Part shown: piece after piece, positions 19,915 to 25,900 of the stretch
Layout of the letters: each line of letters opens with the position of its first letter
Position numbering within the stretch: position 1 is the first letter of the stretch
Assembly (NCBI GenBank): GCA_965235115.1
Contig: OZ249436.1
Coordinates: 11,844,001-11,908,000 of the forward strand
Direction: 5' to 3'
Length of the DNA: 64,000 bases
Source: Laetmonice hystrix
Lineage: Eukaryota
Program-made: the position numbers and the translations under genes
Notes under the pieces: generated by a model
Told to the model about the DNA's origin: nothing
The model's database searches: none
What the model saw: only the letters and a program-made list of their open reading frames with translations

Positions 19915-22900
19915 CTAGTGTCTCTGCTGGTTGTCAAGTGGAGTGGAAGGAGCCGAGGGAGGAGTGGCCAGTTTGGGCAGGCCGCCCGACTCCATACTAC
20001 TGTTAAAACGCGGGTCCTTGGGCGGCCGCCGATCACGATCACGATCGTAATCATCCGTTTTTCGTTTGCGGTCTCTGTCCCTGTCCCGGTCAGCGTGGTG
20101 ACCATATCTGTCCTCTCGTTTGTCCCGATCCTCTCTGTACGATTGCCGGTGATCACCGCGATGATCTGGTCGATGGTAGTCACTGTGTCGGTCGTAGCGA
20201 TGACTACTGTAGTTTCTCTCACTCCGGTTATATCCACTATATCCATGTTGATCCCGTTTAGGTTCATTGTTAAACCTGAAAAACAGGATACAAATTAATC
20301 CTTGTGAAACATATGTCAAGACTTCATTAACTTCATTAACTTATGTCAAGACTTCTGAGCAAAATGCTCACTTAAATCATTAGGAGGTTCTGAAAATAAG
20401 CCTTTTACTCAGTCAACTTGTACTTCTAATTGTTAAAAAGTTGGCGATTGTTATGCTACTCGAGACGCTGAAAATTAAACGTTGTGGAACTTGAAACCCT
20501 AACTTGCCCTAAATATCAACCCCCCCATCTCCATCCCCTTCCCAGCCCAAACTATTTCCACAATATCAGCTTCCAGTCCCGATAAATTAATCTAGAGTGC
20601 GACTTGCCGTGAATGTTGATCCCCGTGATGTTTCTCCATCCCTTGGTAATAGCCTCGGTCGTACTGGTTCGGGGGTCGTGAGAAGGAGTTGCTGCTTTCT
20701 TGGAACCTACAACACAACAGCTCCACAATGACTCATTGTCCTCCGAAAATCTAACAGTGTTAATCACCTCTATAAAGTAAAAACTATACTTTGACCAGAA
20801 GATCATCAACAATTTTAAAGGACAAAGCAAAGTTTGTGCCACTTTACCTGTGCCTGCGTGGGTCAGTGTTTCCTCTGTCTAAAGGACTCGACTGTTGCCA
20901 GCGTTCATTGGCTGCCACGACGTGTGGTGGCATGTGGAGAGTCGTGTGAAGACTATGACCACTATCCCGGGACATGGGGCCAAAGTTTCGGAATGTGGAA
21001 GACTGTGCAGCACTGGCAGGTGTGGAATAGTGTCGTGGACCATTAGACATACACCTGCCGATTGACCATCGACTTAGTGTCAATGCATCAAAGCATCCCC
21101 TCTGGACATATTACATGTTGGCAGTGAAAATCATTATTTATGTTCAAATCTTACAAATAAGACTGGTAATGTTATAATTGTGCTGCCCTCATATCTCATA
21201 ATCAGTAGTTCAGTGGACCTCTCCCTCCTTCACGACACCAGCTCTGAGCAAGCTCTAGGACAGTATAGGGGAAACAGACAAAGTTCTGTAGTTGGGTCTC
21301 ATAGACAAAGAACAATGGGATGGGAATAAGGGAACAGGACACAGGATAGCTGACAGAAGAGCTCAGTGCCGCAAAGTGGGTCGTCCTCATAATAACGCGT
21401 CTTTGTAATCATCGGGCATCATAATGCATCTTAGTTAACTTCAATGCTTTAGAACAAAAATGTCGCCAAGATCAACATGTTTCACAATTGCTTTGATCCT
21501 GGCATGTTTGACCAGACTTGGATCAGTATTATTTCTCTTACCCATCTCTGCTGCTGTCACTAAGAATGTCAGGGTTGGGCGGCCAAGTGCTCCGTCCTCC
21601 TTCAGTGTGGCTGTCTTTTTTCGAATGCCGTCCGTGATCAGAATCCTTATCTTTTTTTTGTGATGGAGTGTGCCCTTGCTATTTTAGAAAACAAAAGCAT
21701 GGATGACTTATTTTCACAAAACATTTATAAAACATTAATTCTCTTGGTAAGAATCAAAAACACAAATAGGGCATGGAACAGAATCTAAACATTCTGAAGT
21801 TACGATATAAAGGCAAAGAATCAAATACTGGTAATAAAATCCGACTTAAATCTACCTGCTATCAAAAAATAAACTGCAAGATTGCCTTGCTGTCAGCTAC
21901 GAAATTTTTGGGAGTCCTACCTCTTCTTCCCGTTTTTTGACTGCATGTTTGTAGAGTTTGTGTAATCTGGTTGCATCAAATTCTGTGAATTTCGAGACAA
22001 ACACCCACAAGTTGCTGAAAGTAGAGATTACATTTTCCATTATTTTAAGATGCATAATTATGAAGTCAGCTAATTAAGAGGTAAATATTATAGAAATACC
22101 CAGCTTATTTTTATCCTTAAGTTATGAAAAATATAAAACTAGGAGACGAGCTATCATCCTTGGCTGTGACAAAATAAGATTACAGATGCTGACCTTCTCC
22201 ACTCCTTAATCCTCTCTGGATCTCGGTACGTTGCCAGGCAGATTGCGATGCGGTCACCAATTTTTAGGAGACAACGCCGGGTGTGGTTCAGCTGCTCCTT
22301 CTCCGACAAGCCTGGATCTGGGTTATCTAGCTGCTTGAGGGCTTTCTTCACTGGCCTCATTTTCTCTTTGCACTAAAAACAACGGCAACAGCATTAACTT
22401 ATTGCACAGGTTAGCCACCCATTTATGAAAACTGAAAAACATGTTATATTGTTGGATGAGAAGGGAATATAATTTTTACCGTATTCACTACCTACTATAT
22501 TTATATGAACTGTGGCAATTAAAACGTCTTCTTTGCTAATATCTTGCCTAAAAGACTGGTAATGTTAAAAGCATGCTGCCCTCATATCTCATAATCAATA
22601 GCTCAGTGGACCTCTCCCTCCTTCACGACACCAGCTCTGAGCAAGTTCGAGGACAGTATAGGGGAAAGTGAGACAAAGTTTGAAAGTTGGGTCTCATAGA
22701 CAAAGAACAATGGGATGGGAATAAGGGAACAGGACACAGGATAGCTGACAGAAGAGCTCAGTGCCGCAAAGTGGGTCGTCCTCATAATAACGCGTCTTTG
22801 TAATCATCGGGCAGCAAGTGCTTCACAATTACAGCTATCAATGTCTTCATCCTTGCTACACCGCCCAGAATTCTAGGTAGTAGACTCACCTGGGCAAAAA

Positions 22901-25900
22901 CATCTTCTTCTAGCTCCGTAGGTAATTCACCTGGTTTACCTATTGCCTTTGGTTCAGCGTTAGCAGTGAAATGCATGGGTCCTACTTCTGTTGGCTTCTT
23001 CTCTTTAGACTGAAAACATGGAAAAATTTACTTTACCCTACTAAAATCTTCCAACTATATAGTTACATGTATTCAATTACTATGTCTAGATAATTATTTT
23101 AGTGGGGATAAAATTGTCCCACTTGTCTTGTCATCAGTTTAACAGCTGAAAATTACAGCTAGCATTTATGATATGCACAAAACATTGGCCTGACTTCAAT
23201 CCTGACCAGTTTACTAACCCTTTTCTGCTTCTTCTCTTTCTTCTCCTTTTTGCCTTCTTCTTTCACCTTCTTTGACTCTTTCTCCTTCTTTGACTCTTTT
23301 TCTTTCTTTTCCTTTTTATTTCCTGTTCCTTCTTCAGCATGCCCTTTTGCTGCCTTAGATCTTTTCTTTTTCTTCTTAGCGGGGCTGGGTGGGCCAGACT
23401 TTATCTCGCCCTCCTCAGGCTCTTCACTGGGTTCCTTTTTGGTCATCAAGTGTTCAAGCACCTCCATCTTGATGTTGTTCTTGCCTGTAACGGAGTCATC
23501 TGAGCTGGACACATCTTCGACAATCTCGGCAGACTTCACCTTCGGGTTTCGGGACTTGGTCTGCTTCTTTGGTTTAGGTTCCCTGGGAGCTTTGTTTGCC
23601 TTGGCAGACCCTGTTCCACTGGCCTTCTTATGTTTTGTCTGGAAGTTTTAAATTCTTCAGATTAACAACACATAACACACAGGTATTACGTGAACACACA
23701 GTATGGCACAGAGCTGGAATTTCAACTTCTATTGGTATCTAGTTGCTGCCCTCATATCTCATAATCTATAGCTCACAGGATCTCTCCCAGACCAAGGATG
23801 CTCCAGCATTAGATGTAGATTTGTTATTGAAAGAGGAGAATTGTTAGTTGATTGAGGCAGGGAGAGGCGCCCATGAGTACAGATGACAGGATAGAGGGAT
23901 GAAAAGCTGGAACAACCTGTGAAGCTGGGTCATCCTCTTCATAACGCGTCTTTGTAATCATTGGGCAGCACCAACAGGATACACACAATACGCAAACATG
24001 TTTGTTGTATCTTTTCATACATTCATACATTCAGGAGTAAAATCTTACCACAGAAGTTACCACTAATTTCTTTACCGGTACTCACACTGTATCCTTTTTG
24101 AATGTCGAGCTGTTTGCGCAAGATTTTGATCAGATATTCAGCCCTCGTTTGGAGATGTTTCGCCTGTGGTTTGAGATCCCCATCAGGCAGGATCTACAAT
24201 ACAAGCAACACTTCACCTAACTTCATGGTCAAACAATACCACACTGTTACATCAGACTATTAACACTTTCTGTATCGAGAAAAAACACAATGGACAACAT
24301 TCTTTATGTTCTGCTCATCATCAACGACTAATACAACAGCACACATATGGCAAAAAGGGACCATCTTTCTAATACAACTGCCCTGGGGGAAAAAATCAAA
24401 AGTCAAGATTATATTATCATGTACACTTTAATTTGTCAGACTGCACATGTACCTTTTCTAGAAACACACAAATTATACTGCCATCAAGAAATATGAGTTA
24501 CAACTAGAAAAGGATAACCGATTAAAGCTACCTTGTCATGAAGATTAAGTTCAGGGTCCATTTTAATAGCCTCCCAGTTGCCCATGCCATACTCGTAGAT
24601 GCCCTTCAACAGGTTCGAGTCTTCTTCAGTCTCCCAGGGGCAGTCCCAGTGAGCGGACTTCACATGGGCACTTAGCTGAAACCTATTCAATCAAAGATCA
24701 CAGTCAGCTACACAATGAACAATCACAGTCAGCTACACAATGAACGATCACAGTCAGCTACACAATGAACGATCACAGTCAGCTACACAATGAACGATCA
24801 CAGTCAGCTACACAATGAACGATCACAGTCAGCTACACAATGAACGATCGCAGTCAGCTACACAATGAACGATCGCAGTCAGCTACACAATGAACGATCA
24901 CAGTCAGCTACAGGTTTCATATCTGCACCAACCATTAATATATCAATAAGCTTGACAACATACAAGGCCCATGGCTGAGCTGATCTGATCACCAAAGGCA
25001 CAAAAACACTGTTCTTCCCACCCTCAAAGTTTTTCCAAGTAATTCCCCCATTGGAGCAACTTGTAGCAACTTGTAATGTCCATGATAAAATTCCAGCGAA
25101 ACATGATTTACCTTTTAATTGTAGGGGGAAAGGGAGCATGAAAAGATCTGATGACTTGACATGTAGAATGCCATACCTGAGACGTTCCTGTTTGTTACTA
25201 GGCAACGTTTCCACAAGCGGGTCCAGATCTTGTACAGCTTGCAATACCGACTTGGCATTCACCATCACACTTGATAATTTAAAAGTGGGTCCTCGGTGCG
25301 TTTTTTTACCTGATGAGCAACAATTGAATTGAATTGAATGATAACCATGGTTAAAAAAAATAATCCACTGTTTGTAGAAGGTATCTGTATCTACAACACA
25401 TTAATATACCGGTTGTCTTACATTTCCCTATATTTCTACAGAACCCCCCCCCCCCCCAAAAAAAAAAAAAAAACACAAATTTTTCACCTGCCAACTGGAT
25501 CACTTATGTGACCATCACATCGTTTTATACAGCCTCCCAAATAAAATCACTGGTGTCTAATACTTACCATCATAATTGGGGTCTTCCTTCAACTTTTGTT
25601 CATACTCTGCCATGGCAGACACGCACTGACTCTGCAGCATTTCACCAAGTCGAGCCAAGTCTGCCTCCGACTTTTCTTGTAATTCTGCATCACCAGCAAT
25701 TGCATCTAACCTGTGAAATGGAATGCAAAAATGTTTTAAACAGACCGACAACTATAATCGCACATACAGACATTAGATTCTCTTTGCTAAGTGAAAGCTT
25801 ATGGTATCAAGTATAGGCATTATTATATATAGGCTAGTGTTTCCGATTGTGTATTCTGACATTATCACACGTGACCGGGTAAATGGACCTCATGCCTATT

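Follow-up and report, generated by a model that had tools for sequence, protein, structure and literature searches.

Three probable SNORD97-family guide RNA genes in separate introns of CHD1, complementary to elongator tRNA-Met(CAT)

Introduction

Three similar elements lie in the introns of a CHD1 gene, and the question raised by this locus is whether they are guide RNA genes or copies of a repeat and, if they are guides, whether all of them work. The initial annotation of the window (the whole 64,000-nt stretch of DNA analysed) had read them as box C/D RNAs that direct methylation of the wobble nucleotide of tRNA-Met, amplified to three copies from an ancient system. According to Vitali & Kiss (2019), the human RNAs SNORD97 and SCARNA97 guide Cm34 of tRNA-Met(CAT) and are hosted by EIF4G2 and LARP4, the two hosts that the annotation had correctly named, and SNORD97/SCARNA97 candidates are given for insects, Ciona and plants, with one per invertebrate genome. 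For the human RNA, PARIS2 cross-linking captured both a D′ and a D duplex with eMet-CAU, predicting Gm22 in addition to Cm34, and the family was extended to archaea, with guide-target pairs covarying across archaea and eukaryotes; the D′ guide of human D133 has diverged (Zhang et al. 2023). That the system is ancient and has invertebrate homologues is not a new inference: the insect, Ciona and plant candidates (Vitali & Kiss 2019) and the archaeal members (Zhang et al. 2023) had been published before.

Results

Position, size and family match

The elements lie at the positions first given for them, on the minus strand, with lengths of 227–243 nt, inside the 3′ part of the host gene:

23744..23970, minus strand: copy C, probable SNORD97-family box C/D RNA gene, 227 nt with its 8-bp terminal stem counted in
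22574..22816, minus strand: copy B, probable SNORD97-family box C/D RNA gene, 243 nt
21181..21421, minus strand: copy A, probable SNORD97-family gene, 241 nt, with a terminal-stem mismatch and a changed putative C′ box (TGAACTA)
20846..24195, minus strand: CHD1 host gene, 3′ part (spliced contig, Pfam, tblastn)
24086-24195, 23219-23638, 22890-23009, 22194-22372, 21921-22014, about 21540-21678 and about 20846-21052, minus strand: CHD1 exons

A covariance-model search, which the initial annotation had proposed as a check, matched all three copies to the Rfam SNORD97 model (RF01291) over its full length (positions 1–142 of 142), with 55.9 bits for copy C, 45.9 for copy B and 38.9 for copy A. The gathering score of this model is 45 bits, which is reached by C and B, A remaining below it. 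The likeness exceeds chance: searched within 3.4 kb, the matches have E-values of 4.8e-08, 7.5e-06 and 2.5e-04, the last being that of copy A. Between the matched ends, cmscan passes over an interior of 95–171 letters, the model itself having 142 positions. Among the covariance-model results for the three copies there was no separate Rfam match to SCARNA97/SNORD133. Copies A, B and C are very probably three paralogous genes for box C/D guide RNAs of the SNORD97/SCARNA97 family.

The CHD1 host gene

No run recorded as RNA is listed for 20800-24300. Four sequencing runs, from one sample and one study, cover the locus; three of them behave as DNA and the fourth gave a spliced contig of 4067 nt. 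This contig has GT..AG joints, runs on the minus strand and consists of exons only, leaving the snoRNAs uncovered. The Pfam domains CHD1-like_C, HTH_CHD1_Hrp3, CDH1_2_SANT_HL1 and Helicase_C were found on the host, and tblastn placed CHD1 proteins along 36457-21921. Copy C lies in intron 23639-24085, copy B in intron 22373-22889 and copy A in intron about 21053-21541. Each intron thus has a single copy in the orientation of CHD1, which is itself expressed and spliced, and the contig, Pfam and tblastn agree with the separate sense introns originally described. The distances from the RNA 3′ end to the 3′ splice site are about 105, 128 and 201 nt. In vertebrates the optimal distance between a snoRNA and the 3′ splice site is roughly 70–80 nt; the longer values seen here count against the guide-RNA reading.

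Motifs and conserved blocks

The motifs first described (ATGATTA, ACAAAGACGCGTTAT, GATTATGAGAT-ATGA and a terminal stem) are all there, but the stem extends to 8 bp, TGCTGCCC/GGGCAGCA, with 8/8 pairs in B and C and 7/8 in A, which has one mismatch. In all three copies the two atypical boxes, C (AUGAUUA) and D (AUGA), show no difference from the Rfam consensus. From the 5′ to the 3′ end of the RNA the elements are as follows:

23955..23961 (C), 22801-22807 (B), 21406-21412 (A), minus strand: C box ATGATTA, aligned to the Rfam C box
23943..23950 (C), 22789-22796 (B), 21394-21401 (A), minus strand: D′ guide GACGCGTT, complementary to tRNA-Met 21–28
23936..23939 (C, AAGA), 22782-22785 and 21387-21390 (B and A, ATGA), minus strand: putative D′ box
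23769..23775 and 22599-22605 (C and B, TGAGCTA), 21206-21212 (A, TGAACTA), minus strand: putative C′ box
23757..23766 (C), 22587-22596 (B), 21194-21203 (A), minus strand: D guide GATTATGAGA, complementary to U31-C40 of tRNA-Met(CAT)
23752..23755 (C), 22582-22585 (B), 21189-21192 (A), minus strand: D box ATGA, AUGA in the Rfam consensus too

The putative D′ box was assigned from its position and its conserved GA. TGAGCTA/TGAACTA is a candidate C′ box; its UGAGC is present in the Rfam SNORD97 consensus as well, and copy A carries a G-to-A change within this conserved element. The 5′ and 3′ blocks that the initial annotation took as the only conserved parts besides the stem and C-like box are indeed kept, but further conserved pieces had been missed, namely GAGGAYGACCCA on the 3′ side of the 5′ block and GGGAGAGRTCC..TGAGCTA on the 5′ side of the 3′ block.

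Conservation of the ends and divergence of the interior

Copies A and B are nearly the same throughout, with 49/50 identities at the 5′ end, 48/50 at the 3′ end and 136/140 aligned positions in the interior. Copy C keeps its ends (43–44/49 at the 5′ end and 41–43/48 at the 3′ end), whereas its interior is mostly unalignable, with 41–43 identities over 52–54 aligned positions out of about 141. Such conserved ends around a diverged copy C interior speak for the guide-RNA reading. An internal helix could be drawn with one compensatory change among the three sequences, but its score is equalled in 164 of 500 shuffles and it carries no statistical weight.

The interiors are 64–66% pyrimidine overall, with at most 75–78% in the best 60-nt stretch, the introns having 47–56%. 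In human, SCARNA97 has 216 nt and its pyrimidine-rich region is described by Vitali & Kiss (2019) as a Cajal-body localisation signal. By analogy with SNORD97 in the nucleolus and SCARNA97 in the Cajal body, copy C might serve a compartment other than that of A and B; the almost unalignable interiors between kept ends would fit such a division of labour, but it is unlikely, given that the three interiors are alike in pyrimidine content and that neutral drift would produce the same divergence. The wider proposal, that this lineage duplicated its tRNA-Met guide independently of vertebrates and split it into types A/B and C with unrelated interiors, possibly acting in different nuclear compartments, is similarly unlikely; were it true, cooperative methylation in two compartments, as described for human cells, would have been arrived at more than once.

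Pairing with elongator tRNA-Met(CAT)

At least 40 matches to elongator tRNA-Met(CAT) were found in the genome, and in this tRNA of the animal itself the stretch U31-C40 is the complement of the D guide GAUUAUGAGA. In the arrangement GAUUAUGAGA-U-AUGA, the fifth nucleotide upstream of box D is a G placed opposite C34; checked on the genome's own tRNA genes, the pairing with the anticodon loop originally proposed could be upheld. Six tRNA variants were aligned (the reference and five from four other identity classes or loci), and the stretch U31-C40 does not vary among them, its complementarity to the D guide holding for 6/6. The duplex comprises 11–13 bp. Its energy is −18.6 to −21.5 kcal/mol, whereas shuffled tRNA averages about −10, and 0–2 of 500 shuffles attain the value observed.

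The D′ guide GACGCGUU pairs with tRNA A21-C28; counted upstream from AUGA/AAGA, its fifth nucleotide is a U that faces G22. The shuffle support for this duplex is moderate (−13.6 to −14.8 kcal/mol, reached by 9–10 of 500 shuffles). The two C28 genes allow 8 bp, while in the A28 variants sampled, the majority type (A28:U42), the first pair is lost and 7 bp remain. The predicted target pair is a G·U wobble, which counts against the reading of a D′ site.

The initial annotation gave the 5′ block no function; it is the D′ guide described by Zhang et al. (2023), which addresses another site of this tRNA.

Copy number and look-alikes

Three similar copies within 2.8 kb could suggest a short interspersed element (SINE) or another mobile element with a chance resemblance to a snoRNA, a reading rendered extremely improbable by the genome-wide searches. 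A pattern made of the C box and the 5′ block hits the 627-Mb genome three times, each time at this locus, and its reversed control gave 0 hits; the 20-nt 3′ block gave three exact hits and one look-alike with one mismatch and no Rfam match, its reversed control also giving one hit. Since only three copies were found in 627 Mb, the elements are not a dispersed repeat, in line with the initial rejection of a SINE or transposon, and the three copies with CHD1 as host, proposed at the same time, agree with both the genome-wide search and the gene models. The six D-guide look-alikes found elsewhere lack the C box, the stem and the D′ guide, poly(A) tails are absent, and the depth of the DNA contigs, about 2x over the stretch common to A and B, is raised only where these two copies collapse into one contig; these points stand equally against a mobile element. 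With no poly(A) tail at the copies and about 35–55 nt of 3′ flank shared by A and B, the copies point to duplication of DNA and not to retroposition.

A candidate fourth copy at C8:23657391 has the 3′ block followed by a canonical CTGA, but it gave no Rfam match and, having neither C box, stem nor D′ guide, was set aside as a chance look-alike. Five further D-guide look-alikes (L013–L016 and L018), devoid of the same three parts, were rejected as well. A scan for relatives in metagenomes with the C box and D′ guide returned 8 loci, with 0 SNORD97 matches at E <= 0.01 and 0 D guides; these loci are chance matches, as neither feature accompanies them.

Do all copies work?

It is possible, but on balance improbable, that only some of the copies work, A and perhaps others being in decay, and that duplication within the gene left the cluster as a by-product instead of a selected gain in dosage. 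The 38.9 bits of copy A, below the gathering score of 45, its stem mismatch and its changed UGAGC element would be in keeping with this, as would the near-identity of A and B, which are so alike that there has been too little time for selection to show. Against it, copy A retains both guides, both terminal boxes and 7/8 stem pairs. Judged from its sequence, copy A may work less well than the others or be decaying.

Discussion

Proposed mechanism and origin

We infer expression, RNP assembly and both methylations from the features described above. Once its CHD1 intron has been spliced out, each guide RNA would be freed by trimming as far as the 8-bp terminal stem. On its C/D and C′/D′ motifs it would assemble with the box C/D proteins, among them the methyltransferase fibrillarin, Nop56, Nop58 and Snu13. 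With the D guide annealed to U31-C40, wobble C34 would be set opposite the fifth position upstream from box D and there acquire a 2′-O-methyl group. The D′ guide, annealed to tRNA positions 21–28 opposite G22, might direct a second methylation or help to open the tRNA. The cluster would have originated by DNA-level duplication within CHD1, copy C arising early and the A/B pair recently.

Novelty and meaning

The novelty of the locus was overstated at first, homologues and both tRNA-Met duplexes having been published already. The new part is modest: CHD1 as an apparently new host (a literature search found no paper joining SNORD97 and CHD1), three copies versus the one per invertebrate of the 2019 paper, and a probable lophotrochozoan source, by which a family of guide RNAs already traced from archaea to humans probably gains a member from that group. 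Because the D and D′ complementarities to tRNA-Met are preserved letter for letter, the published argument for a conserved two-site interaction gains strength. The locus also documents turnover of host genes (CHD1 here versus EIF4G2 and LARP4 in human) and an expansion inside a single gene, at odds with the one copy per invertebrate of the 2019 paper. For annotation, three snoRNA genes belong in these CHD1 introns; the understanding of the mechanism is unchanged by them.

Comparison with known systems

With human SNORD97 the copies have in common the terminal stem, AUGAUUA, AUGA, the D′ block GACGCGUUAU and the D guide, each of which agrees with the Rfam consensus, as well as an intronic location sense to the host and the predicted target C34 of tRNA-Met(CAT). 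They differ from it in length (227–243 nt versus the 142-position model), in host (CHD1 instead of EIF4G2) and in being three. Human SCARNA97/SNORD133, in a LARP4 intron, is similar in length and has a long pyrimidine-rich interior and the same D guide; the D′ guide here is of the SNORD97 type, whereas that of D133 has diverged. The invertebrate and plant candidates of Vitali & Kiss (2019) are likewise non-vertebrate homologues with an invariant D guide and a conserved anticodon arm of tRNA-Met; there, invertebrate candidates occur one per genome, in contrast to three in one gene, and the species given are insects, Ciona and plants, with no lophotrochozoan among them. Compared by description, archaeal box C/D sRNAs share the predicted RNA-guided methylation of the same base, C34 of tRNA-Met, but are short and not intronic in a protein-coding gene.

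Elements and host gene

The three elements occupied the same strand of the window, as follows.

Positions of the SNORD97-like elements
21181–21421, minus strand, element A, 241 nt
22574–22816, minus strand, element B, 243 nt
23744–23970, minus strand, element C, 227 nt

Their membership of the known SNORD97 family is supported by the covariance-model match that the initial annotation had proposed as a check (cmscan, Rfam release 15; RF01291, gathering score 45). The gathering score was reached by copy C, at 55.9 bits, and by copy B, at 45.9 bits; copy A scored 38.9 bits (E 2.5e-04 for a 3.4-kb region) and was matched at relaxed thresholds only. 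Besides this score below the threshold, copy A carries two changes at conserved places. All three matches covered model positions 1–142 of 142, with 95–171 interior letters skipped by cmscan, so that the match rests on the element ends. No Rfam family beyond SNORD97 was matched in window 15000–42000 at E ≤ 0.1.

Copies A and B are near-identical (49/50 positions at the 5′ end, 136/140 aligned positions in the interior and 48/50 at the 3′ end). Copy C keeps the ends of A/B (43–44/49 at the 5′ end, 41–43/48 at the 3′ end) and has a scarcely alignable interior (41–43 identities in 52–54 aligned positions, out of ~141). The variants seen in sequencing runs inside copy C (23896, 23920 and 23922) all lie in its middle part and leave the terminal blocks untouched, but are too few for a test. 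In the surrounding intron (23639–24085) several single-base variants were found across runs, together with an 8-nt deletion at 24014 in two of the three public runs that behave as DNA (X1–X3), which suggests heterozygosity of the sequenced sample.

Minus-strand frames around the elements encode the Pfam domains Helicase_C, CDH1_2_SANT_HL1, HTH_CHD1_Hrp3 and CHD1-like_C, and named CHD1 proteins align by tblastn along window 36457–21921. The top match was a Lingula anatina protein (70% identity over 1189 aligned residues), followed by 57–66% for 16 other CHD1 queries, including molluscs, an annelid, a nemertean, arthropods and a fish. On these identities the source animal is an invertebrate and probably a lophotrochozoan. 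A spliced contig of 4067 nt, obtained from one of four public runs, has GT..AG ends at 6/6 joints on the minus strand.

CHD1 exons in the spliced contig
24086–24195, minus strand
23219–23638, minus strand
22890–23009, minus strand
22194–22372, minus strand
21921–22014, minus strand
about 21540–21678, minus strand
about 20846–21052, minus strand

These introns bear out the earlier claim that each copy sits alone in its intron, in the orientation of the host: copy C lies in a 447-nt intron (distance to the 5′ splice site ~115 nt, to the 3′ splice site 105 nt), copy B in one of 517 nt (73 and 201 nt) and copy A in one of 487 nt (~118 and ~128 nt), and no copy is present in the three intervening introns of the contig. 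The 420-nt exon 23219–23638, flanked by the intron of copy C and, one exon further, by that of copy B, encodes a Lys/Glu/Ser-rich stretch of low complexity that matches no Pfam family convincingly. A tandem array at 24633–24937 (25-nt period; 9 overlapping 105-nt copies, 61–95% identical to the reference copy) lies in or adjoins the intron upstream of the HTH_CHD1 exon.

Anatomy of the predicted RNAs

The order of parts was obtained from the alignment of A, B and C read against the Rfam consensus.

Parts of the elements, 5′ to 3′
1, 8-bp terminal stem, 5′ strand
2, C box AUGAUUA
3, CAAA
4, D′ guide GACGCGUU, then AUU (A, B) or AUG (C)
5, putative D′ box, AUGA (A, B) or AAGA (C)
6, GGAC (A, B) or GGAU (C)
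7, pyrimidine-rich interior, ~140 nt
8, GUCC (A, B) or AUCC (C)
9, two nucleotides
10, putative C′ box, UGAGCUA (UGAACUA in A)
11, two nucleotides
12, D guide GAUUAUGAGA
13, U
14, D box AUGA
15, 8-bp terminal stem, 3′ strand

Every sequence block listed in the initial annotation is present in all three copies; the terminal stem it described exists and is longer, at 8 bp (TGCTGCCC/GGGCAGCA; full in B and C, one mismatch in A). We infer the C′ and D′ boxes from their position. In the 4-bp helix beside them, A/B differ from C by a single compensatory change, which with three sequences only carries no weight (164/500 shuffles were equal or better). In the box C/D kink-turn, position 6 of the C box pairs with position 1 of the D box, usually as G and C; here U and A replace them in all three copies and would keep the pair.

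Predicted pairing with elongator tRNA-Met(CAT)

A search pattern derived from both guides' complements retrieved two tRNA genes, identified by ARAGORN as tRNA-Met(CAT). With the 73-nt gene as query, at least 40 matches were found among 111 candidates, including arrays on three contigs at 93–96% identity; all five matches sampled from the 38 non-identical ones (at least one per identity class) were tRNA-Met(CAT). The genes form large tandem arrays at C8:16468923–16489512 (at least 29 matches, spaced ~415–530 bp or multiples) and smaller ones on contigs C19 and C4.

The D guide faces U31–C40, invariant in all six aligned tRNA sequences, in agreement with the pairing previously proposed. Upstream of AUGA come U, A, G, A and G, and this count places the fifth nucleotide, G, opposite C34, as had been computed. 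With G.U pairs counted, the duplex is 11 bp long for copies A and B and 13 bp long for copy C (−18.6 to −21.5 kcal/mol), an energy matched by 0–2 of 500 shuffled tRNAs. The 5′ block, as D′ guide, pairs with A21–C28 (−13.6 to −14.8 kcal/mol, reached by 9–10/500 shuffles), with the fifth nucleotide upstream of D′, a U, opposite G22. Pair 28:42 is A28:U42 in 5/5 sampled variants vs C28:G42 in the two exact genes, which makes the D′ duplex one pair shorter in the former. Among the listed matches, C28:G42 occurs only in two dispersed genes (C4, C6), and the sampled array genes have A28:U42. On these predicted pairings, A, B and C would be putative guides for Cm34 in tRNA-Met(CAT).

Copy number and origin

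The C-box plus 5′-block pattern matched only A, B and C across the 627-Mb assembly (reversed control, 0), as expected from the earlier claim that they are not a transposon. When at most 2 mismatches were allowed, the 20-nt 3′ block occurred genome-wide in A, B, C and at one 1-mismatch site on another contig, C8:23657391, where a canonical CTGA box is preceded by ATGATTATGATTATGAGA. This site (1485–1520 of the stretch around it) has no Rfam match, terminal stem or D′ guide and is probably a chance likeness. A less strict pattern for the D guide (15 letters, 14 of them fixed) gave 9 genome-wide matches, compared with 3 in the control; those that lie outside CHD1, six in number, lack a C box, terminal stem and D′ guide.

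The contig common to A and B has ~2x the neighbouring depth in the DNA-like runs (61.7 vs 26.6–32 in X1; X2 and X3 alike), as expected from two copies. No poly(A) tail was found at A, B or C, and the 3′ flanks of A and B are partly alike, which argues for DNA duplication within the gene; copy C would have come first and the A/B pair would be recent.

Comparison with known systems

Vitali & Kiss (2019, PMC6601510) report that Cm34 of elongator tRNA-Met(CAT) is guided in human by SNORD97, encoded in an intron of EIF4G2, and by SCARNA97/SNORD133, encoded in an intron of LARP4, that Cm34 protects the tRNA from angiogenin, and that homologues exist in every vertebrate examined. In Zhang et al. (2023, PMC10576143), PARIS2 duplex groups connect two regions of eMet-CAU with D97/D133, one through the D′ guide and one through the D guide, Gm22 and Cm34 are predicted from these duplexes, and homologues extend to archaea. 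These sources thus already describe the system as ancient and as present in invertebrates, and give the role of the 5′ block; the ancient invertebrate system of the initial annotation is not new. Its observation is confirmed, and each computational test it had proposed supports its interpretation. A literature search for SNORD97 together with CHD1 found no paper. The modest novelty lies in CHD1 as host, the three copies and a probable lophotrochozoan source. As for the interior, its pyrimidine content (64–66%, and 75–78% in the best 60 nt, vs 47–56% in the six introns) is reminiscent of human SCARNA97, whose interior is likewise rich in pyrimidines.
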